Assembly (NCBI RefSeq): GCF_047601385.1
Contig: NZ_JASGJP010000001.1
Span: 466,487-530,486 of the forward strand
Origin: Ottowia sp.
Lineage (GTDB): Bacteria > Pseudomonadota > Gammaproteobacteria > Burkholderiales > Burkholderiaceae_C
Direction: 5' to 3'
DNA: 64,000 nt
The notes under the pieces were generated by a model that made no database searches, was not told the DNA's origin, and worked only from the letters and a program-made list of their open reading frames with translations. This document shows, piece after piece, positions 35,300-63,545 of this stretch. The translations under genes were made by a program, and so were the position numbers. Position 1 is the stretch's first letter; every line of letters begins with the position of its first letter.

Positions 35300-36253
35300 T
35301 CACCTCCCCGCCATCAGTTCCCGCGCCAGATCGCTGTAGATTCTATAGCGGCTGGCGTTGATCGCTCCTGGGCTGGAGGCCGATTCGACCATTGAAATCA
35401 CCCCGCAGCCCGGCTCGTGCAGGTGGGTGCAGTTATAGAACCGGCATGCGGCCACGTGGGGGTTGATGTCGGGCATGTAGGCGGCCAGCTGCGCCGGCTC
35501 GATGTGGCGCAGGCCGAACTCCTGGAAGCCAGGGGAGTCGATCAGGGCGCTCGCGCGCGCATCGTCCAGCCAGTACCAGGTGGTGCTGGTGGTGGTGTGG
35601 CGGCCGCTGTTCAGGGCCTGCGAGATCTCGCCCGTCTGCGCGCCGGCGCCGGGCACCAGGCGGTTGATGAGGGTGCTCTTGCCGGCGCCCGAGGGGCCCA
35701 GGATCAGCGTGGTGCGGCCGTGCAGCCGCCGGGCCAGGGCGTCGATGGATTCAATGGGCACGTCCACCGCCTGGCGCGGCTTGGCGGCCAGGCCCAGCAC
35801 GGCATAGCCCATGGCGCGGTAGGGCGCCAGCCGCGCCCAGGCGCGCGCGAAAGGCACCCCCAGGTCGGCCTTGTTCAGCACGATCAGCGGCGCGATGTGC
35901 TCGGCCTCGCAGGCGATCAGGGCGCGGGCGAGCTGGTGCTCGGAGAACTCGGGCTCGGCGGCGACCAGGATCAGCACCTGGTCCAGGTTGGCGGCGAAGG
36001 ACTTGGTGCGCACCTCGTCCTGGCGGTACAGCAGGTTGCGGCGTTCCACCACCTGCTCGATGGTGCCCTCGTCCTGCGAGGGCAGCCAGCGCACGCGGTC
36101 GCCCACCACCACGGCCAGCTTCTTGCCGCGCGGGTGGCAGATGACGCGCTCGCCGCCCGGCGTCTCGACCACGCAGTGGCGCCCGTGGGCGCTGACGACC
36201 AGCCCGTCCTGCAGGCGAGCGTCAGCGGCAGAAGGAGAGCGTGGGCGGCTCAA
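35300..36253 (-). CDS. rsgA: Ribosome small subunit-dependent GTPase A
   Basis: VVGDRV, NKAD, GPSGAGKSTLIN, GRHTTT, DSPG, CRFYNCTHLHEPGC. Confidence 0.95.
   Translation of the reverse strand: MSRPRSPSAADARLQDGLVVSAHGRHCVVETPGGERVICHPRGKKLAVVVGDRVRWLPSQDEGTIEQVVERRNLLYRQDEVRTKSFAANLDQVLILVAAEPEFSEHQLARALIACEAEHIAPLIVLNKADLGVPFARAWARLAPYRAMGYAVLGLAAKPRQAVDVPIESIDALARRLHGRTTLILGPSGAGKSTLINRLVPGAGAQTGEISQALNSGRHTTTSTTWYWLDDARASALIDSPGFQEFGLRHIEPAQLAAYMPDINPHVAACRFYNCTHLHEPGCGVISMVESASSPGAINASRYRIYSDLARELMAGR
35333..35397 (+). repeat. 62-bp element in-frame in the rsgA 3' end
   Basis: GCTGT-AGATTCT-ATAGC, 28 nt, then GGCC-GATTCGACCATTGAAA. Confidence 0.8.
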
Positions 36254-36591
36254 GGCGTGGCGCGGGGCTGGGCGCGAGCAGCGTCGGCCAGTTCGTCAGT
36301 GGCGCGCGCGGCGCGCACGTCGAGCGCGGTCACGCCGCCGGCGTCGTGCGTGGTCCAGACCACGGCCAGGTGGCCCCAGCCGACGTGCAGGTCGGGGTGG
36401 TGGTTCAGGCGCTCGGCCAGCCCGGCCACGGCCTGCGCCAGTGCCATCGCCTGGGCGAAGTCGGGCAGGCGCCAGCGCTTCTCCAGCGCCGGCACGCCGC
36501 CGCGCACGACCTGCGCCCAGCCGGGCGGCGGCGCGTCGATTGCTCCGGATTCAGGAGCTGCTGGCGCAGGTGGGACGGGCGCTGGAGCCAT
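36250..36591 (-). CDS. Pterin-4-alpha-carbinolamine dehydratase
   Basis: AERLNHHPDL..WTTHDAGGVTALD. Confidence 0.88.
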   Translation of the reverse strand: MAPAPVPPAPAAPESGAIDAPPPGWAQVVRGGVPALEKRWRLPDFAQAMALAQAVAGLAERLNHHPDLHVGWGHLAVVWTTHDAGGVTALDVRAARATDELADAARAQPRATP

Positions 36592-36603
36592 ATTTTTCTT
36601 AGA
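36542..36603 (+). repeat. 62-bp element overlapping the start of the dehydratase gene
   Basis: GCTCC-GGATTCA-GGAGC (compensatory centre), 28 nt, then GCCA. Confidence 0.75.
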
Positions 36604-36661
36604 AGATCAGTTGTTCAAGGCGCACTGCACAAGCTGCGGCACATCCAGCACCTCGGCACGC

Positions 36662-36784
36662 AAGGCCGCGGAGCAGGCCAAGCCAGCGCACCCGTGGCCG
36701 GGGGCCCCCCGGCCAGGGGGTGCGCCCCCTTGAGGGGAGATGCCGCAACATCGCGCAGCGAGTGGAGCAACGGGGGTGGGTCAT
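36662..36784. repeat. ~120-bp dispersed repeat, copy 2
   Basis: Homologous to 29742-29863. Confidence 0.85.
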
Positions 36785-38082
36785 AGAACCTGCGCGCCCA
36801 TGCGCGCGATGCGCTCGCTGGCGGGCGGGTGCGAGTAGTAGAAGCGCACGTACACCGGGTCGGGCGTGAGCGTGCTGGCGTTGTCCTTGTAGAGCTTGAC
36901 CAGCGCGTTGCTCAGGTCTTGCGCGCTGGCCTGGGCGGCGGCGTAGGCGTCGGCCTCGAACTCGTGCTTGCGCGACAGTTGCGCCATCAGCGGCGACAGG
37001 AAGAAGCTGAACACCGGCACCACCAGCATGAACAGCAGCAGCGCCAGCGCGTGGTTGGGCACGGTTCCGCCCAGTTCGGCCGGCAGGTTGGGCGTGACGC
37101 CCAGGCCCGCATAGAACCAGCTCTGCCGCGCCAGCCAGCCCAGCAGCGCCAGCCCGCCCAGGCTGAGCGCGAACATCCCGGCGATGCGCTGGGCGATGTG
37201 CCGGTGCTTGAAGTGGCCCAGCTCGTGCGCCAGCACGGCCTCCACCTCGGGCGGGGTGAGCTGCTCCAGCAGCGTGTCGAAGAACACCACGCGCTTGGCG
37301 GCGCCGAAGCCGGTGAAATAGGCGTTGGCGTGCGCGCTGCGGCGGCTGCCGTCCATCACGAACAGGCCCTTGGCGGCAAAGCCGCAGCGGGCCATCAGGC
37401 CGGTCACCCGCGCCTTCAGCGACTCGTCCTGCAAGGGCTGGAACTTGTTGAACAGCGGCGCGATGAACATCGGGTAGACCACCAGCATCAGCAGGCTGAA
37501 GCCCATCCACGCGCCCCAGGTCCACAGCCACCACCAGGCGCCGGTGGCGTTCATCAGCCACAGCACCAGCGCGGCCAGCGGCACGCCGATGGCGATGCCG
37601 AGCAGCGTGGACTTCAGCAGGTCGCCCAGCCACAGCCCGAGCGTCATCTTGTTGAAGCCGAAGCGCTGCTCCAGCACGAAGGTGTTGAACAGCGCCACCG
37701 GCAGGTCGATCAGCCCGTTGATGGCGGCAAAGGCCACCAGCAGCGCCAGCGGCTGCAACAGCGGGCGCTGGGCGCCCATCAGGTCCAGCAGGGCGCCGTT
37801 CAGCCCGTCCAGCCCGCCCAGCAGCGTCCAGCCCAGCAGCACGGCGGCGCCCAGGGCCAGCTCGATCAGGCCGAAGCGCAGCTTGGCCACCGTGTAGTCG
37901 GCCGCGCGCTGGTGCGAGGCGAGCGGAATCGCCTGCGCGAACTCCGCCGGCACCTGGGCGCGGTGGCGGGCCACAGCGCGGATCTGGCGCGAGGCCAGCC
38001 ACAGCTTGACCAGCAGGTTGGCCAGCAGCGCCGCGCCCAGGATGAGGCTGACGACGAGGGCGGGAGTGAGCGGTTCGTTCAA
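36781..38082 (-). CDS. M48 (Ste24-like) zinc metallopeptidase
   Basis: ANAYFTG, VLAHELGHF (HExxH), EFEAD, YSHPP. Confidence 0.93.
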   Translation of the reverse strand: MNEPLTPALVVSLILGAALLANLLVKLWLASRQIRAVARHRAQVPAEFAQAIPLASHQRAADYTVAKLRFGLIELALGAAVLLGWTLLGGLDGLNGALLDLMGAQRPLLQPLALLVAFAAINGLIDLPVALFNTFVLEQRFGFNKMTLGLWLGDLLKSTLLGIAIGVPLAALVLWLMNATGAWWWLWTWGAWMGFSLLMLVVYPMFIAPLFNKFQPLQDESLKARVTGLMARCGFAAKGLFVMDGSRRSAHANAYFTGFGAAKRVVFFDTLLEQLTPPEVEAVLAHELGHFKHRHIAQRIAGMFALSLGGLALLGWLARQSWFYAGLGVTPNLPAELGGTVPNHALALLLFMLVVPVFSFFLSPLMAQLSRKHEFEADAYAAAQASAQDLSNALVKLYKDNASTLTPDPVYVRFYYSHPPASERIARMGAQVL

Positions 38083-38141
38083 GGTGAAAGGTCGGGTTGG
38101 CGGCCGAAGCGCCGAGTGTAGAACGTGGACAATCGCCCCCC

Positions 38142-38726
38142 ATGACCGACCAAGCCCCCTCCCCCAGCGACGCCCTGCCCAAGTCCGACCAGAACCTGGT
38201 CTGGCTGGACTGCGAGATGACCGGCCTGGACCCGGAGAAGGAACGCATCATCGAGATCGCCGTGGTCGTCACCGGCCCGCAGTTGACGCCGCGCGTCGAA
38301 GGGCCGGTGCTGGTCGTCCACCAGAGCGACGCCGTGCTGGACGCCATGGACGCCTGGAACAAGGGCACGCACGGGCGCAGCGGGCTGATCGACAAAGTGA
38401 AGGCCGCCACCACCACCGAGGCCGAGGCCGAGGCCAAGCTGATCGCCTTCCTCTCGCGCTACGTGCCCAAGGGCGCCTCGCCGATGTGCGGCAACACCAT
38501 CGGCCAGGACCGGCGCTTCCTGGTCAAGTACATGCCGCGGCTGGAGGCGTTCTTCCACTACCGCAACATCGACGTCAGCACGCTGAAGGAACTGGCGCGC
38601 CGCTGGCGGCCGGAAGTGGTCGATGCCTTCACCAAGCGCCAGGCGCATACGGCGCTGGCGGACGTGCATGAGTCGATTGATGAACTGGCGCACTACCGCG
38701 AGCGCTTCATCCGGCTGCACGGCTGA
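38142..38726 (+). CDS. orn: Oligoribonuclease
   Basis: [43 protein letters not shown]. Confidence 0.97.
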
Positions 38727-38863
38727 CACCCCCTGTCGGCCCGCATCTCGCCCACCTGCCGAGAAACACCGGCATTGCGCCGGGCCGCCTCGGTGCGCGT
38801 CCAGTCGAGCACATCAACGCCCAAGCTCAGCGGGTGCCGCAGGCGGTCTATTAGAGTGAAGAG

Positions 38864-39181
38864 TCAGACCGCAGAGGCATCCCGAAAAGCGCGAAGAACA
38901 GAGTTGATCCGCGTCTGGTAGCCAGCGCCTTGTGCCTTGAACCACTCAATAACGTCCTGGTCAATGCGCAGCGAGATCAGTTCCTTATTGGGAACTGGCG
39001 CAAGCCCGCGCCGGACGATGCCGCGAACGATGTGATCCGGGTCGAACTCGGGATGCTCTTGAGACGGTTGGGCCTGGGTGTTGGGCGACATGAGCTGGGG
39101 CCAGTCAGTTCTGGACTTGGCTGAAGAAGAAGCGCGCTTCTCGATCGGTTGCTTTGCGGAAGGAGATGATGCGGATTTCAT
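38864..39181 (-). CDS. brnA: BrnA-family antitoxin (start uncertain)
   Basis: SRTDW..; ISLRIDQDVIEWFKAQGAGYQTRINSVLR. Confidence 0.88.
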   Translation of the reverse strand: MKSASSPSAKQPIEKRASSSAKSRTDWPQLMSPNTQAQPSQEHPEFDPDHIVRGIVRRGLAPVPNKELISLRIDQDVIEWFKAQGAGYQTRINSVLRAFRDASAV

Positions 39182-39380
39182 CGTTGGTCTCCGTGTGAGC
39201 GATGGACACAGGCACCCCGGCCAGAAGGCCCAGCGTGACGAAGCGTTGTTCACCGTAGTCGAAGCGGTCATCCTCGTAGGTGAAGGTCAAGCCTTCAAAG
39301 ACGCGCGGTGCATCAACGAAATCAAGGCCATGATCCTTGAGATTGATCCCGCGCTTGCGCTCTGACCATGTGAAACGCAT
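39105..39380 (-). CDS. brnT: BrnT-family toxin
   Basis: FTWSERKR.IN.K.HGLDF..A..VF; YGEQRF; IRIISFRKA. Confidence 0.9.
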   Translation of the reverse strand: MRFTWSERKRGINLKDHGLDFVDAPRVFEGLTFTYEDDRFDYGEQRFVTLGLLAGVPVSIAHTETNDEIRIISFRKATDREARFFFSQVQN

Positions 39381-39386
39381 GCAGCA

Positions 39387-39398
39387 TTGTAGCTACAA
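39387..39398. promoter_or_regulatory. Palindromic operator overlapping the brnT -10 box
   Basis: Perfect TTGTAGCTACAA immediately upstream of brnT; minus-strand TACAAT. Confidence 0.65.
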
Positions 39399-39444
39399 GG
39401 CGTAGGTGCATCAAGGGCGGGGGATTCCTGCGACTCAAGGATTT

Positions 39445-39496
39445 AATTTTCATCTGACCCTGATTTCCTCAAATTTTCATCTGACCCTGATTTCCT
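39445..39496 (-). repeat. Two exact 25-bp direct repeats (27-bp period) of the AAATCAGGGTCAGAT site
   Basis: AATTTTCATCTGACCCTGATTTCCT at 39445-39469 and 39472-39496. Confidence 0.9.
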
Positions 39497-39667
39497 TCAG
39501 ACGTGGCCGGCCTGATCGACGCCGTGCACGTGAAAAATGTTCTTCGCCAGATCGATGCCAACGGTGGTAGCTTGCATGGGGGACGCTCCTGTCTGGATGA
39601 CAAGTGGTTGTTCGGACCTCCACTTTGGCTCTTCAGGGCCGATCAGGTGGGGGCGTCCATTCCATTA
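39497..39667 (-). mobile_element. IS110-family left-end remnant with a 26-codon transposase stub
   Basis: 39577-39497 translates to MQATTVGIDLAKNIFHVHGVDQAGHV* (IS110 N-terminal GIDLAK motif); upstream TAATGGAATGGACGCCCC resembles an IS1111-type end. Confidence 0.8.
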
Positions 39668-39731
39668 ATTACCCCGCTGATTTTCCCGCCCTGATTTCTC
39701 ATGACCCAAATTTCCCCCTGATTTTTCCTAG
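39668..39731 (-). repeat. Cluster of four degenerate GGAAAATCAGGG half-sites
   Basis: Minus strand: GGAAAAATCAGGG / GGAAATTTGGGTCA / GAGAAATCAGGGC / GGGAAAATCAGCGGGG. Confidence 0.7.
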
Positions 39732-39747
39732 TGGTTTGATGAACCGT

Positions 39748-40185
39748 TCAGGAGACATCAGGCCCTTGCTCCTTATTCCCTCGTGGCTGAGATAACAAGC
39801 TGGCCACAGCTGAAAAGGCCATGCTAGTCAACCAAAAATAGAAGCCTAAACCCACTGTATATGGAAAGTCTCCCGCGCTTCCAACTGGGATTGTGGTGCC
39901 GAGTGGAAACAATGCGGCCACGACGAGTGCCAATGAAGCGAGCATGAACCCTAAGCCAGGGTCTGTGCGCTTACCCCAAGCGAACCATAAAAGCACGTTG
40001 GCCAGCCAAGAAAAGTGGCCCGCAAATATGCCTATTGGCCCAAGTAGCAGTGCCTCAAGGCCGTAGTGGGGCTGTAGCTTCCCATAGTAGTCAGCAAAGT
40101 ACGCCGGAAACGCAAGGCTTGCTGCATACAAGCCAATGCTGAGCCAGCCGCACAACTGCGACAGAATTTGAGAGCGACGTCGCAC
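39748..40185 (-). CDS. Small multi-pass membrane protein of unknown function (lower GC)
   Basis: About four hydrophobic segments; AGGAG RBS before GTG (the track uses TTG at 40203). Confidence 0.75.
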   Translation of the reverse strand: MRRRSQILSQLCGWLSIGLYAASLAFPAYFADYYGKLQPHYGLEALLLGPIGIFAGHFSWLANVLLWFAWGKRTDPGLGFMLASLALVVAALFPLGTTIPVGSAGDFPYTVGLGFYFWLTSMAFSAVASLLSQPRGNKEQGPDVS

Positions 40186-40210
40186 GCGTCTCCTAACGGA
40201 CAAAGTAAGA

Positions 40211-40247
40211 GGGAAAATTAGGGAAAATTAGGGTCAGATCACAATTT
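40211..40247 (+). repeat. AAATCAGGGTCAGAT-type site with duplicated GGGAAAATTA
   Basis: GGGAAAATTA GGGAAAATTA GGGTCAGATCACAATTT. Confidence 0.8.
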
Positions 40248-40252
40248 ATTCC

Positions 40253-40717
40253 CTATGCCACGGCTTCCTCGGGTTCACTCTGGGTGTGTCCTACCCATTT
40301 GCCGCGCCGTTCGGTGGCGACCAACTTCTGGTTGCAGAGCCGGTCAACGGTGTTGATCCGGTCCAGAATTTCAGTGACCTTGCCGTTGCCCTTGAACTTC
40401 TCGAAGGCAACGATGCGCAGCAGGGCATCGGCCTGGGCGGGTACTCGGCCGGTTCTCTCCCACAGGGAGACGGATTGCTCGGTCGTCAGCAGCACGCGCT
40501 GCGCCAGCGACTGCTGCGACAGGCCCAGCAGCGTGCGCAGAAAGCGCAGCTCCTTGCCGGTGATGCGACCAGGCTTCTTGATGATCGACTGGGCGATGAC
40601 GAGGTGCAGGCCGTCGGTGTCTTCAATGGACACGCCTTTGCCGTAGGGCGTGCGGTGGATGGTGTAGCCGTTTTCCAGCCACACGTTGTCGAGGCCGGAT
40701 TCCGTGTAGTGGTACAT
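40253..40717 (-). CDS. HTH antitoxin-like regulator (MqsA/YgiT-like)
   Basis: MYHYTESGLDNVWLENGY..ELRFLRTLLGLSQQSLA..SVSLWER. Confidence 0.78.
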   Translation of the reverse strand: MYHYTESGLDNVWLENGYTIHRTPYGKGVSIEDTDGLHLVIAQSIIKKPGRITGKELRFLRTLLGLSQQSLAQRVLLTTEQSVSLWERTGRVPAQADALLRIVAFEKFKGNGKVTEILDRINTVDRLCNQKLVATERRGKWVGHTQSEPEEAVA

Positions 40718-40725
40718 GTCAGCTC

Positions 40726-41043
40726 TCATTCAATATAGAAGACCGTGACCATGATGACGTTGGGCGTGTCGTCGCTGATGGCCGCGACGACGCAGCAGTT
40801 GTGGCCTGAGCAGAAGTGCTCCATCCGGCACTCCAGTGTTCCCTTGTAGGTATTGGGCTCGGGAGTGCGCCGAATCACACCTCTGCGCAGACACTCGATG
40901 GCTACGTGCAGCGGCATCTTCCGATCCTTCATCTGCTTGCGGGCATGCGCGGTGATGATGACCTTTGCAGAATCGCCCGCCGCAGACCTGATGAGCTTCG
41001 CAAGCTGCGATTTCGATAGCGTGAAGACCGAGCCTGTGACCAT
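40726..41043 (-). CDS. DUF4258-like (RelE-superfamily) putative toxin
   Basis: IITAHARKQMKDRKM...IMVTVF; directly upstream of the HTH gene. Confidence 0.72.
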   Translation of the reverse strand: MVTGSVFTLSKSQLAKLIRSAAGDSAKVIITAHARKQMKDRKMPLHVAIECLRRGVIRRTPEPNTYKGTLECRMEHFCSGHNCCVVAAISDDTPNVIMVTVFYIE

Positions 41044-41070
41044 AAAATTTATGGGTTCATGGTACCCCAT

Positions 41071-41095
41071 AAATCAAGGGTCAGATCAAGATTTT
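41071..41095 (+). repeat. AAATCAGGGTCAGAT-type site at the right island boundary
   Basis: AAATCAAGGGTCAGATCAAGATTTT, next to the stop codon of the core lipoprotein gene. Confidence 0.8.
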
Positions 41096-41097
41096 TC

Positions 41098-41727
41098 TTA
41101 CCGCCCTGCCCCCACCAAATCCATCCGGCGCCTGAGCCGCGCCGCCTCGTCCGCGCCGCCCCGCTCGTCGGCCAGCCGCGCCTGCACGCCCAGCCAGGCC
41201 AGCAGCGGGCGGCGCCAGCCTTGTTGGGACGCGGTATCGACCGCACGCGCCACCACGTTGGGGCTGGCGTCGGCGCGGCGCAGTTGCACGCCGGCGGCGA
41301 TCAGGCGGGCGAAGGGGTCGGCGGGCGGGGTGGCGCTGCGGTGCGGTTCGGGCAGCAGCGCGGTATCGGCGGCGGTGAGCCGCTCGCCGGCCAGGTAGCG
41401 GGCATAGGCGCGCTCGGCGTCGCCGGCGTCGGCGCGCAGCGGCTCGAAGCCGGCGCAGGGCTCGAACACCAGGCTGGCGACCTGCGCGGCGCAGCGCGTC
41501 AGCTCGATGCGGGCCACCAGCTCGGGGCGACCGGTGCGGGCGGTTTCGGCGCGGGCCTGCTCGAACTCGCGCGCGGCGACGCGGGCGTCGCCTTTCAGGT
41601 AGGCCTCGGCAAAGCGCTCGGCGTGGCCGACGGCATTGATGCTCCAGTCAGGCACTTTCGGGCCACCAGCGCAGGCGCAGAGCGCGCCGGCAGCTATCAG
41701 AAGTGAAGCAATGGTGATTCGCCTCAT
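41098..41727 (-). CDS. Putative lipoprotein of the MlaD/MlaE-like cluster
   Basis: MRRITIASLLIAAGALCAC lipobox-like leader; ATGA coupling to the MlaD-like gene. Confidence 0.75.
   Translation of the reverse strand: MRRITIASLLIAAGALCACAGGPKVPDWSINAVGHAERFAEAYLKGDARVAAREFEQARAETARTGRPELVARIELTRCAAQVASLVFEPCAGFEPLRADAGDAERAYARYLAGERLTAADTALLPEPHRSATPPADPFARLIAAGVQLRRADASPNVVARAVDTASQQGWRRPLLAWLGVQARLADERGGADEAARLRRRMDLVGAGR
41657..41709 (-). repeat. 62-bp element encoding the lipoprotein signal and lipobox
   Basis: GGCCACCAGCGC...GCGCGCCGGCAGCTAT-CAGAAGT-GAAGC. Confidence 0.65.
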
Positions 41728-42731
41728 GGCAGCTTCACCTCCTTCTCCTTCGGGGCGAAGGGCCACTTGCGGTTCAGCTCGGCGATCAGCGCGTCGATCT
41801 TGCGCAGGCTGCTTTCCACGTCGGCGCGCAGGCCGCCCAGGTCGGCGGTGGCCTCGCGCGCGTTGCCGGCGACGGCCTGCACGTCCTTCAGCACGGCATC
41901 GACCTGCGCCATGCTCTGGCGCACGTCCTTCAGCAGCGCGTCGAGCTGGCCGACGGCGGCGCGGGCGCCGTTGACCAGGCCGTCCTGGCCCAGCACCTGC
42001 TGGTCGGCCTTCTTGAGTACGCCGTCGGTGCGCACGGCCACGGCGTCGAGGTTCTTCACCAGCTGGTTGGTGCGCTCCAGCAGCTCGGCCACGCGGCGGG
42101 CGTCGGCCTCGTTGCCGGTCAGCGCGCCCAGCAGGCCGCCCTGGGTGCTGTTCATCTTCTGGGTGAAGGCGCGCACGTCGGCCAGCATGCCGGCCAGCGC
42201 GGACTGCTCGGCGGTGAGCTGGCTGAGGTTCTGCAACACGTCGCGCGCGTCGGCCACCATCTTGGGGATCTCGGCCGACACGTCGCCGCGCAGCACGGTG
42301 CGCTCGGCGCCGGCGGGCAGCGGCGGGTCGTCCAGGATGCCGGTGAAGGCGCGCAGCCGGGCGGCGCCGACCAGCCCTTTCTCCAGCGTGAAGATGCTGG
42401 AGGTGCGCAGCCAGTGCGCGTCCTTCAGCGGCACGTCCACCGCGATGCGCACGGTGCCCTGCTCGACCAGCTCGATGCCGCTCACGCGGCCGACGGGAAA
42501 GCCGGAGAAGGTCATGTCCATGCCGACCACCACGCCCTCGGAGTCGTCGGTGGCCAGGTACAGGCGCTGCGTGGCCTCGAAGGCACCGCGCGCCCACATC
42601 AGGTACAGCACCACGCCGGCGATCAGCGCCGCCATGAACAGCAGCAGCAGCGCGGCGCGCACCTCCAGGCCGCGCTGGGCGCGGCTGGCGGCCAGCGGGG
42701 GCGGGTCGTCGTCTTGGGGGGGGCTGCTCAT
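41724..42731 (-). CDS. MlaD/MCE family protein
   Basis: N-terminal TM, FSGFPVGRVSGIEL MCE motif, helical C-terminus. Confidence 0.88.
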   Translation of the reverse strand: MSSPPQDDDPPPLAASRAQRGLEVRAALLLLFMAALIAGVVLYLMWARGAFEATQRLYLATDDSEGVVVGMDMTFSGFPVGRVSGIELVEQGTVRIAVDVPLKDAHWLRTSSIFTLEKGLVGAARLRAFTGILDDPPLPAGAERTVLRGDVSAEIPKMVADARDVLQNLSQLTAEQSALAGMLADVRAFTQKMNSTQGGLLGALTGNEADARRVAELLERTNQLVKNLDAVAVRTDGVLKKADQQVLGQDGLVNGARAAVGQLDALLKDVRQSMAQVDAVLKDVQAVAGNAREATADLGGLRADVESSLRKIDALIAELNRKWPFAPKEKEVKLP

Positions 42732-42735
42732 GCCC

Positions 42736-43539
42736 TCAATAGTAGTTGCCCACCAGCGACGCGATCTCGATCACCAGCATCAGCACGAACATGCGCACCA
42801 GGCCCTGCAACTCCACGCTGGTGCGCGAGGCGCGGTGCGGCATGTCGCGCAGCGCGTTGGCCACCGGCAGCAGCGCCACCGCCAGCGCGAACAGCAGCGT
42901 CTTCAGCCCGAAGATCAACGACACCACCGGGTTGAAGATGTGCCCCACCCCCCGGTTGTACGCCGCCATGCCGGCCAGGTTGAAGCCGTGCACGCCGATG
43001 TAGGCCAGCACCAGCGAGATCACGCAACTGAACGCCGCCAGCAGCAGCACGGCGGCCACGCCGGCCAGCACGCGCGGCAGCACTTCATGCACCAGCGGGT
43101 CGATGCCGCGCGCGCGCAGCGCCTGAAAACCGCCGTCGCGCTTGAGTTTGTACAGCTCCGAGCCGCTCGGGATGCTGTATTCCACCGCCACGAACAGCGC
43201 CGCCGCCAGCGGGATCAGCTCCAGCACCAGCACGCGCACCACGGCGTCCAGCGCGTACTGCGTCAGCCCGTAGGCGAAGGCGGTGACCACCACGATGCGG
43301 ATCACCACCACGTTGAACAGCGCCATCAGCGTGGTGAAGCCCGGCAGCCCCGGCCCGGCGGCGGCGTACACCTGCCGCAGCACGGCGCCGCGCGTCTCGC
43401 GCCGCCAGCTGGACGGCGACAGCGCCAGCACCGCCACCTGCGCGCCGATGAAGGCCATCAGCCACCAGCCCCGCAGCCATTGCAGCACCTCGCGCCCCAA
43501 GTGCAGCAGCCAGCCGTACAACGAGAAACCCGTGGTCAT
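42736..43539 (-). CDS. MlaE family ABC permease
   Basis: VLVLELIPLAAALFV, GIDPLVHEVLPRV. Confidence 0.85.
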   Translation of the reverse strand: MTTGFSLYGWLLHLGREVLQWLRGWWLMAFIGAQVAVLALSPSSWRRETRGAVLRQVYAAAGPGLPGFTTLMALFNVVVIRIVVVTAFAYGLTQYALDAVVRVLVLELIPLAAALFVAVEYSIPSGSELYKLKRDGGFQALRARGIDPLVHEVLPRVLAGVAAVLLLAAFSCVISLVLAYIGVHGFNLAGMAAYNRGVGHIFNPVVSLIFGLKTLLFALAVALLPVANALRDMPHRASRTSVELQGLVRMFVLMLVIEIASLVGNYY

Positions 43540-43566
43540 GCGGGCATGATACGACGGGCGCCGCGT

Positions 43567-43628
43567 TCAGGCATTAAATTGGCCTTCAGCGCTTATGGGG
43601 CAATCGCTGGCAGCTATCATTATTGAAG
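43567..43628 (-). repeat. 62-bp element between the divergent mlaE-like and phaZ genes
   Basis: AAATTGGCCTTCAGCGCTTATG...CGCTGGCAGCTATCATTATTGAAG. Confidence 0.85.
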
Positions 43629-59843: not shown

Positions 59844-60890
59844 TCAGTTCGCAATGTCCTGCGGCTGGGCCGCCTGCGCCAGCAGCAGGCCTCGCGCGGC
59901 GGTGCTGGCCGCGATGCGCCCCTCGGCCACGTCGGCCTGCAACTGCGGCAGCAGTGCCTTGACTCGCGGATGCGCGCGGAAGGCTTGTTTGAGCCCGGCG
60001 TCGATGCGCTCCCACATCCACGCCAGCGACTGCCGCTGACGCCGCTCGGCCAGCCGGCCGTTGGCGGCCTGAACGTCGCGGAAGCGGGTGACGGCGGACC
60101 AGAACGCATCCAGCCCCTCGCCCTTCAGGCCGCTGATCTGCATCACCTCCGGCTGCCACTGCGCGGCGGCGGCTTCGGCATGCGGGTCGCCCCGGGCCGG
60201 GTTGCCGTGCAGGCCGAACAGGCGCAGCGCCGACTGGATCTGCGCCCGCGCGCGCGTGGCGGCGGCGGGGTCGATATCGGCCTTGTTGATGACCACCAGG
60301 TCGGCCAGCTCCATCACACCCTTCTTGATGGCCTGCAAGTCGTCGCCGGCGTTGGGCAGTTGCAGCAGAACGAACATGTCGGTCATGCCGCTGACGGCGG
60401 TCTCGCTCTGGCCCACGCCCACGGTCTCGACCAGCACCACGTCGTAGCCGGCGGCCTCGCACACCAGCATGCTCTCGCGCGTCTTCTCGGCCACGCCGCC
60501 CAGCGTGCCGCTGCTGGGGCTGGGGCGGATGTAGGCGTGCTCGTGCAGCGACAGGCGCTCCATGCGCGTCTTGTCGCCCAGGATCGAACCGCCCGACAGC
60601 GTGGACGACGGGTCGATGGCCAGCACCGCCACGCGGTGGCCGCGCTCGATGAGGAAGAGGCCGAGCGTCTCGATGAAGGTGCTCTTGCCCACGCCCGGCA
60701 CGCCGCTGATCCCTAAGCGCAGCGCATGGCCGGTGTGCGGCAGCAGGGCCGTCAGCAGCTCGTCGCCCTGCGCGCGGTGGTCGGCGCGGGTCGATTCGAG
60801 CAGCGTGATGGCCTTGGCCATGGCGCGGCGCTGGGCGGCGGGCGTGCCGTGCAGGATGGCGTCGGTGCTTGCGACGGCAGGCAAAGTCAT
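59844..60890 (-). CDS. meaB: Methylmalonyl-CoA mutase-associated GTPase
   Basis: GISGVPGVGKST, AIDPSS, GSILGDKTRM, ETVGVGQSE, NKAD. Confidence 0.95.
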   Translation of the reverse strand: MTLPAVASTDAILHGTPAAQRRAMAKAITLLESTRADHRAQGDELLTALLPHTGHALRLGISGVPGVGKSTFIETLGLFLIERGHRVAVLAIDPSSTLSGGSILGDKTRMERLSLHEHAYIRPSPSSGTLGGVAEKTRESMLVCEAAGYDVVLVETVGVGQSETAVSGMTDMFVLLQLPNAGDDLQAIKKGVMELADLVVINKADIDPAAATRARAQIQSALRLFGLHGNPARGDPHAEAAAAQWQPEVMQISGLKGEGLDAFWSAVTRFRDVQAANGRLAERRQRQSLAWMWERIDAGLKQAFRAHPRVKALLPQLQADVAEGRIAASTAARGLLLAQAAQPQDIAN

Positions 60891-61300
60891 CGGCTCGGCT
60901 CCTCTGGTAGAGGCTCTTCCCCCCACCGTTCGGGCTGAGCTTGTCGAAGCCAGGGACCAGCCGCTGTCGTACCCTTTTGCCCTTCGACAGCGCCAGAGGA
61001 TGCGGGTGAACGGGCAAGGCCTGTGCGGGAACGCGCCAACTGCTGAATCGCGGCCCAGTCCCCACGGATCAGCGCTTCCTTCTTGGCTCGGGACCACCCT
61101 TTAATCTGCCGCTCGAATGCGATCGCGCCTTCGCGCGCCTCGAATTCGCCCTGCCAGAGCAATTCGACCGGCTTGCGCGTCGCGGTGTAGCCGATCAAGC
61201 CGTCAGCGTGCTGCCGCATGCGTAACTCTATATCGTCGGTTTGTCCTACGTAGTAAGACCCATCCGAACAACACAGCAGATAGACAAAGAAGGGTTTCAA
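60887..61300 (-). CDS. GIY-YIG nuclease (YhbQ/UPF0213-like) with repeat-derived tail
   Basis: FVYLLCCSDGSYYVGQT..RMRQH..ERQIKGWSRAKKEAL. Confidence 0.88.
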   Translation of the reverse strand: MKPFFVYLLCCSDGSYYVGQTDDIELRMRQHADGLIGYTATRKPVELLWQGEFEAREGAIAFERQIKGWSRAKKEALIRGDWAAIQQLARSRTGLARSPASSGAVEGQKGTTAAGPWLRQAQPERWGEEPLPEEPSR

Positions 61301-61346
61301 GCGATGGGGCGAGAAAGGGCTTCGACAAGCTCAGCCCGAACGGTGG
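60923..61346. repeat. Perfect 29-bp inverted repeats enclosing the GIY-YIG core
   Basis: CCACCGTTCGGGCTGAGCTTGTCGAAGCC (60923-60951) and its exact reverse complement (61318-61346); degenerate third copy near 60980-61013. Confidence 0.9.
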
Positions 61347-61385
61347 AGCATAAGCATCGCACGGGCAAGACGCGATACACCGAAG

Positions 61386-63545
<2,160 letters not shown>

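Follow-up and report, generated by a model that had tools for sequence, protein, structure and literature searches.

A dispersed repeat that probably belongs to the resident RAYT occupies the gaps of a toxin-antitoxin island in Ottowia sp.

The window analysed here is a stretch of 64,000 nucleotides of Ottowia sp. (G000:C1:466487-530486, from a genome of 4.0 Mb and 69% GC, here G000). It carries a 2.4-kb island between the stop codon of orn (38726) and that of a minus-strand lipoprotein gene (41098), and each intergenic gap of this island contains a repeat of one family, referred to as the site. The site is approximately 32 bp long, with the consensus GGGAAWWWTYR-GGGTCAGAT-SANGATTTTYMC and partly complementary outer arms. 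At a rough probability of 0.6, it is a member of the short dispersed repeat family of the REP-associated tyrosine transposase (RAYT, a Y1/HUH enzyme) resident in this genome, in a REPtron-type system. The first-pass annotation, made from the letters alone, had proposed a new kind of cassette-capture system; a RAYT flanked by its own repeats is a REPtron (PMC3333891, PMC2817692, PMC6006769). That kind of system is already described, and the island is no new mobile element with its own ends. Positions in the island are those of the window.

The enzyme gene that is physically tied to the site is a RAYT-like Y1/HUH transposase, the one such gene in the genome, which bears out the earlier guess of a trans-acting enzyme of this class. 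The gene (232 aa) is situated outside the window at G000:C1:1601633-1602328 on the minus strand, just upstream of gltB. Y1_Tnp gave one match in the 4.0 Mb (1601963-1602289, minus strand; Pfam, 39.7 bits), and the protein scored 79.4 bits against NCBIfam REP_Tyr_transpos, for which the cut-off is 80. The HxH motif (H60-x-H62) and Tyr103 are at least 90% conserved among 30 RAYT orthologues. The AF2 model (pLDDT 90) has as its top PDB match 4ER8 (E 1.7e-7, TM 0.73), which is E. coli TnpAREP bound to the hairpin of a repetitive extragenic palindrome (REP); a phmmer search of the RAYT against PDB gave no match. Orthologues are single-copy, share 54-72% identity, are present in about 30 of 36 genus genomes and are found mostly upstream of gltB. 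In G000 the RAYT is bracketed by inverted sites at 1601520-46 (+) and 1602343-69 (-). A site is present on at least one RAYT flank in 26 of 28 same-genus loci, and on both in about 19. Upstream, the copy shares the strand of the RAYT, with GGGG 21-22 nt before the ATG in about 14 loci; in G000 the distance from site to ATG is 37 nt instead of the usual 22, owing to a 15-bp duplication. The downstream copy is inverted and stands beside a conserved box, AATTGGGGACATATCAAATT. Four tandem GCTATTTGGGGTCT units were also observed in the 5' flank of the G000 RAYT. Site boxes accompany even RAYT variants of only about 40% identity, and none was found upstream of gltB in two RAYT-less genomes, so the boxes belong to the RAYT and not to gltB.

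The site is dispersed well beyond the island. An nhmmer profile built from site copies (threshold of at least 12 bits) gave 64 matches in 19 clusters in G000, 62 of them non-coding, in 17 clusters. The remaining matches, at 665497 (a dnaE2-like gene) and 2841816 (an open reading frame, ORF, of 1457 aa), were rejected as sites since they are inside long coding ORFs rich in GC at third codon positions. A site-like 19-mer, TTGGGGTCAGATCAYGATT, occurs in the dnaE2-like gene of two species (G000:C1:665497-665526; L115, 1493-1521) and is a conserved coding look-alike and no repeat copy. When the site pattern was searched across the genus, 39 of 49 genomes had it, with 1-54 copies each, while reversed and control patterns gave 0-1 matches. 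Uniqueness to this one locus, which the first-pass annotation had named as the outcome that would speak against its reading, is thus not what was observed. No copies were found in the RAYT-less genomes G006, G010, G031 and G034, and in G026 and G015 the dispersed copies have the same 3'-arm variant as the flanks of their own RAYT. A single conserved RAYT, inverted sites around it and the lack of repeats without it together characterize a RAYT-linked repeat.

Several observations weigh against the assignment of the site to a RAYT repeat family. G023 has 9 copies without a RAYT match, in a metagenome-assembled genome that is 86% complete, and in G008 the dispersed copies differ in arm variant from the RAYT flank. 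The site is also a poor REP: the GT[AG]G tag is absent from it, a copy number of about 60 is low, most copies are singlets and REPIN doublets are rare. With -0.4 to -3.1 kcal/mol, the folding of the window copies does not exceed that of shuffles, and the near-exclusive association with toxin-antitoxin (TA) and toxin genes described below is no known property of REPs. Folding is stronger elsewhere in the family, at -6.8 kcal/mol (z -3.2) for the best single-copy site type and at -18.4 kcal/mol (z -6.4) for a back-to-back site pair at 951674-951754, which has duplicates. In favor of the assignment, 16 of the 62 sites adjoin a tandem copy of their own left arm (period 9-29 nt), compared with 7% in a control. 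No conserved tetranucleotide, the signature of a Y1 target, was evident by eye at the outer site edges.

A second repeat also bears on the assignment. The 16-mer that occurs most often in the genome (178 times) comes from a classical palindromic REP of 62 bp with the consensus GCTACTnnTTTGATAGCTGCCAGCGCTTGCCnGGCGnGCGCTGGAGGCCGATTTG. This REP is represented by 155 exact 17-mers, has a folding energy of -14.6 kcal/mol (z -3.9) and contains CTAC, that is, GTAG on the opposite strand. One of its many copies genome-wide is at 62014-62075 (+) of the window, and a copy directly follows the RAYT stop codon. Five other places have a site and a REP about 20 nt apart, as a composite in constant register. 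As a further point against the assignment, this GTAG-REP may be the true substrate of the RAYT and the site just an accessory box. The GTAG-REP is probably the main partner of the enzyme, and the GGGTCAGAT site a minor, atypical one. In this respect, nearly half of REPtrons were reported to have more than one repeat subfamily, some classes being non-GTAG and weakly structured (Quentin et al., PMC6006769). A literature search with the site and REP sequences returned unrelated primers only.

The island has a GC content of 0.49-0.63, against about 0.70 on either side. Between 39445 and 41103 the window has four copies of the site family, which is of the AAATCAGGGTCAGAT type, and four arm-only fragments; with up to 2 mismatches allowed, the 15-mer of the window has 3 occurrences where 0.02 would be expected. 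The first accessory module past orn is BrnTA, where GC falls to 0.56-0.60 from 0.66-0.70. It consists of the BrnA antitoxin (38864-39100, minus strand; Pfam BrnA_antitoxin, 67.4 bits) and the BrnT toxin (39105-39380, minus strand; Pfam BrnT_toxin, 77.6 bits), and its promoter region adjoins the left-most site. Two complete sites stand there in tandem at 39445-39496 on the minus strand, with a 27-nt period (AGGAAATCAGGGTCAGATGAAAATT; nhmmer, 21.4 and 22.8 bits). They contain an exact 25-bp direct repeat, AATTTTCATCTGACCCTGATTTCCT, at 39445-39469 and 39472-39496, in which the site is readable on the minus strand. An IS110-family stub (39497-39667, minus strand) comes next, and directly against its left end are four left-arm-only repeats (GGRAAAWWTYRG...) at 39668-39731 on the minus strand, reading GGAAAAATCAGGGG, GGAAATTTGGGTCATGA, GAGAAATCAGGGC and GGGAAAATCAGCGGGG. 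These had been called half-sites; four units are indeed present, as fragments of the left arm and not as halves of a palindrome. The orphan ORF at 39748-40203 (minus strand) encodes a predicted membrane protein of 151 aa, which gave no match in Pfam or NCBIfam and is private to G000 within the genus (0 of 48 other genus genomes).

To the right of this ORF, at 40211-40247 on the plus strand, is a site with a tandemly duplicated left arm of period 10 (nhmmer, 30.7 bits), reading AGGGAAAATT AGGGAAAATT AGGGTCAGATCACAATTT. The TA pair that had been recognized beyond it is a DUF4258 toxin (40726-41043 with its probable start, minus strand; Pfam DUF4258, 29.6 bits) with an MqsA-like helix-turn-helix (HTH) antitoxin (40253-40729, minus strand; HTH_31 and TIGR03830, both below cut-offs). 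The pair is a bare operon, with one site 5 nt past its stop and another 27 nt before its start. The start of the DUF4258 gene is most likely 41043 (MVTGSV...) and not 41070, the ORF having probably been called 9 codons too long; homologues have 103 aa, and their start corresponds to ATG 41043 and is preceded by a conserved ...CATAAAAATTATG leader. The right-most site, AAATCAAGGGTCAGATCAAGATTTTTCTTAC (41071-41103, plus strand; nhmmer, 23.1 bits), overlaps TTA 41098-41100, with which the core lipoprotein gene (41098-41730, minus strand) terminates. Arms of 40 nt at 39439-39478 and 40213-40252 form an inverted repeat with 80% complementarity, and 17-18-nt arms at 39445/39471 and 41077-41094 are 88-89% complementary. 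The 25-bp copies, the plus-strand copies, the imperfect terminal inverted repeats and the site at the core-gene stop are thus as the first-pass annotation described them, in coordinates and sequence. Its layer-by-layer nesting fits the layout as well, although REP-like repeats in the gaps, one of them hit by IS110, explain this layout equally well. An Rfam search (E up to 1) of 38500-41500 gave no match to any known RNA or guide RNA.

Other classes of element were considered for the island and rejected. No recombinase gene was found in it and the site is not attC-like, both as first noted. Against an integron, the site is about 32 bp long, without a GTTRRRY/RYYYAAC pair and without R''-L''...L'-R' architecture, and none of the 8 matches to PF00589 (tyrosine recombinases) in the genome is in the island or within about 13 kb of a site cluster. 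A miniature inverted-repeat or other DDE transposon was rejected since the sequences beyond 39445 and 40247 (CAAGGATTT and ATTCCCTAT) show no target-site duplication. As to a DDE partner elsewhere, the only transposase gene bracketed by inverted sites is the Y1 RAYT, and the IS5- and IS30-like elements are beside and not between sites.

The surroundings of the island were compared between species; the closest orn genes are those of Ottowia. Three other Ottowia genomes have the order permease-mlaD-lipoprotein followed by w35300-M48-orn (region 35300-43600 of the window), while in G000 the lipoprotein block is inverted and sits after orn, with the island at the joint. The island is at a synteny break and not at a simple inversion. 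No site was found in the orn interval of 80 relatives. A cargo-free site doublet is present at 3842045-3842117, where the region past a transglycosylase gene is unalignable across 20 species and the site occurs otherwise only in G021. An exact 26-mer of the lipoprotein gene had no match in metagenome contigs; a degenerate site pattern was found in 2 such contigs, and in one of these the sites follow a small low-GC ORF.

The IS110 fragment had been recognized correctly. Window positions 39501-39687 are 96% identical to G000:949018-949204, the 5' end of the sole DEDD_Tnp_IS110 frame. The stub comprises the left end and the first approximately 26 codons of the DEDD transposase (MQATTVGIDLAKNIFHVHGVDQAGHV), and its cut edge directly meets the arm side of the 39472-39496 site. 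PF01548 has a single match in the genome, in an open frame of 210 aa that is cut by a site and has no C-terminal domain; no intact DEDD transposase with both domains was found in G000, and the right ends of the element are all lost. Remnants of one IS110 element stand against sites at the window and at 62.5, 941.5, 949, 2473 and 2487 kb, and at 3399 kb beside a GTAG-REP, seven loci in all. In five stubs the left end meets a site arm at one constant nucleotide, reading arm-(T)AATTAATGGAATGG, as would be expected of an IS110-family element with REPs as its target; the arm-then-TAATTAATGGAATGG junction of the window is shared with four other IS110 stubs. The arm-only repeats against the left end are as expected if the IS had inserted between site arm and core. 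REPs are described as IS110 targets (PMC1525189, PMC12288879), and IS110 elements in REPs were reported to be able to form circles with extra modules (PMC12288879).

These remnants could also be taken to mean that a DEDD recombinase of IS110 type, guided by a bridge or seek RNA, was the main actor. The sites would then be its targets and the RAYT a bystander that owns the targeted repeat, with the mosaics arising from repeated insertion, modular circle formation and decay. The seven loci, the constant left-end junction and the reported module-carrying circles are in keeping with this. It is nevertheless improbable: the longest frame is 210 aa without the C-terminal domain, no intact copy exists, most site clusters show no IS110 trace, and the sites in 39 genus genomes and their fixed spacing at the RAYT are not accounted for. 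Moreover, insertion splits a target in two and makes no whole sites flanking cargo. An IS5-like (60181-61365) and an IS30-like element (1216461-1216540) were likewise observed within a few bases of site 3' edges, so several IS families land next to the repeats.

Nearly all site clusters are in low-GC patches (0.52-0.67) beside TA, polymorphic-toxin or Rhs modules. Seven co-oriented sites at 454235-456604 alternate with PemK, DUF4258, ParE, HepT/MNT and a second ParE, a duplicate. This TA array (G000:C1:452900-457600) is situated approximately 10-13 kb before the window start and comes directly after a type IV pilin gene; G008 also has sites at this pilin-downstream place, although its cargo there differs from that of G000. 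A five-site array at 2072358-2075531 holds PIN/RHH and related pairs, one module per interval, and single sites adjoin HigA-like genes, PIN genes and an Rhs protein. Six clusters are in loci of polymorphic toxins of about 875 aa with an AHH nuclease end (Pfam), where sites stand at the 5' border of orphan toxin fragments that are truncated. Toxin loci of this type (about 875-920 aa, C-terminal AHH) were observed at 941000-957700, 1204100-1216500, 2468200-2488200, 2802000-2808400 and 57000-65300, each continuing into a mosaic of 5'-truncated orphan toxin fragments, small low-GC ORFs and IS5/IS30/IS110-type remnants. The small low-GC ORFs are likely immunity genes. Sites of G008, G015 and G026 are likewise beside addiction- or toxin-type genes. 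Genes are often cut flush at a site, as are the IS110 transposase (at three or more codons), the antitoxin of the duplicated ParE segment and the orphan AHH-toxin genes (at two points).

Such arrays raise the question of whether cargo itself is moved. The RAYT could excise a segment between co-oriented sites as a single-stranded circle with one site and reinsert it at another site, or could pick up variable-length DNA beside a site in a one-ended manner; TA and toxin-immunity modules would accumulate in arrays in both cases. This is unlikely, for all that the co-oriented arrays with one module per interval (454235-456604 and 2072358-2075531) speak in its favor, as do the genes cut flush at several different codons and the changing cargo of the pilin-downstream hotspot. 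The window TA pair is also trimmed to a bare operon between sites, while six homologous TA loci on contigs of other organisms (60-69% identity) keep their own promoter and terminator. TnpAREP was reported to form circles and to recombine sites in vitro (PMC3333891). On the other side, the site is missing from those six loci and thus is not carried along with the cassette. The same cassette was not found at two unlinked site-bounded places; the sole duplicate is local and begins inside a gene. The orientation of the sites relative to cargo is inconsistent as well (minus, minus, plus and plus in the window, with genes on either strand). The first-pass idea that an enzyme adds DNA between sites is not supported by the TA homologues or by the single local duplication. 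That the Ottowia RAYT uses GGGTCAGAT sites to excise, insert or capture variable-length cargo as single-stranded DNA, as a Y1-HUH cassette system that would act like an integron or an ISCR element but derive from a domesticated REP transposase, remains doubtful.

A site with a passive function, such as a promoter or operator, a terminator or a nucleoid-protein site spread by ordinary duplication, would fit the filling of very short inter-operon gaps, a possible -35-like TTGATC and the position 22 nt before the RAYT ATG. In the toxin loci, many site copies are indeed parts of larger duplicated segments. Such a function is very improbable, since the site orientation varies, being on the same strand at the RAYT and on the opposite strand at the window TA pair, and homologous TA operons elsewhere have no site. 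Tandem partial units, truncated genes at the site edge and absence from RAYT-less genomes would also be unexpected of a motif of this kind.

For the site as a repeat of the resident RAYT, a mechanism can be proposed by analogy with E. coli TnpAREP. The RAYT would bind the structured repeat on single-stranded DNA at replication forks, cut nearby with relaxed specificity and rejoin the ends. Cutting and rejoining of this kind would spread repeats, add partial tandem units and sometimes fuse a repeat to unrelated DNA. TnpAREP cleaves near the REP at a relaxed position between C and T and recombines such sites, and cleave-extend-cleave amplification was proposed for its partial units (PMC3333891); such activities would account for the tandem partial units and the flush-cut genes. 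The island would accordingly consist of horizontally acquired addiction modules (BrnTA and DUF4258/HTH) and an orphan membrane gene, with repeats in the gaps, one of which may have been hit by an IS110-family element that was later worn down to a stub. Recombination between co-oriented repeats would delete the DNA between them, and only modules whose loss is lethal would persist, which may explain the TA bias.

The cellular role of RAYTs is an open question in the field, although their repeats are abundant. To our knowledge, there are few observations of moving RAYT repeats, and none that connects cargo with a RAYT. The genus offers a compact natural case, with one RAYT and two partner repeats, the minor of which stands at almost all borders of addiction and toxin-immunity modules, where genes are often cut flush. 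Should these junctions be the work of the RAYT, such enzymes would shape arrays of accessory genes in addition to maintaining selfish repeats. Otherwise, the locus still exemplifies REP-like repeats as IS110 targets, as rearrangement points and in TA persistence.

Among known systems, the superintegrons of Vibrio are chromosomal integron cassette arrays rich in TA cassettes. The Ottowia arrays resemble them in that short sites of one orientation stand in a row and each interval contains one small module, in many cases a TA pair, and in a TA enrichment that plausibly stems from resistance to deletion. They differ in having no IntI-type integrase near any array, in mixed cargo orientation and in a linked enzyme that is a single-strand HUH transposase. 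ISCR and IS91 elements perform one-ended rolling-circle capture by Y2 HUH enzymes and have an oriIS/terIS pair. Common to both are an HUH enzyme and junctions with one end fixed at a short element and the other arbitrary; the Ottowia RAYT is, however, a Y1 enzyme of the IS200/IS605 branch, its gene is outside the segments and there is no oriIS/terIS pair. The NIME/dRS3 repeats of Neisseria, with GGGAAT/ATTCCC-like arms, stand at the junctions of the mosaic maf/tps toxin-immunity islands and are targets of an IS110-like DEDD recombinase. They resemble the Ottowia sites in this but are of another sequence and another organism, and we know of no described link between dRS3 and a RAYT. The REPtron of E. 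coli K-12 (yafM; PMC3333891, PMC2817692, PMC6006769) shares with the Ottowia system a Y1/HUH gene of RAYT fold that is single-copy and vertically inherited, flanking by inverted repeats that are dispersed genome-wide, more than one repeat subfamily and IS elements in the repeats. The Ottowia site differs in having no GT[AG]G tag or strong stem and in its approximately 60 copies, not hundreds; its copies are almost exclusively beside TA, toxin-immunity and Rhs modules and not in core intergenic regions, and the 5' copy is usually 22 nt from the ATG. The REPIN-RAYT systems of Pseudomonas (PMC3116915, PMC5581495) have hairpin doublets, which are rare in Ottowia, where singlets with a tandemly duplicated arm prevail. 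Shared with them are vertical inheritance, a repeat that is homogeneous within a genome and matches the RAYT flanks (in G026 and G015, and partly in G000), and the loss of the repeat in genomes without a RAYT.

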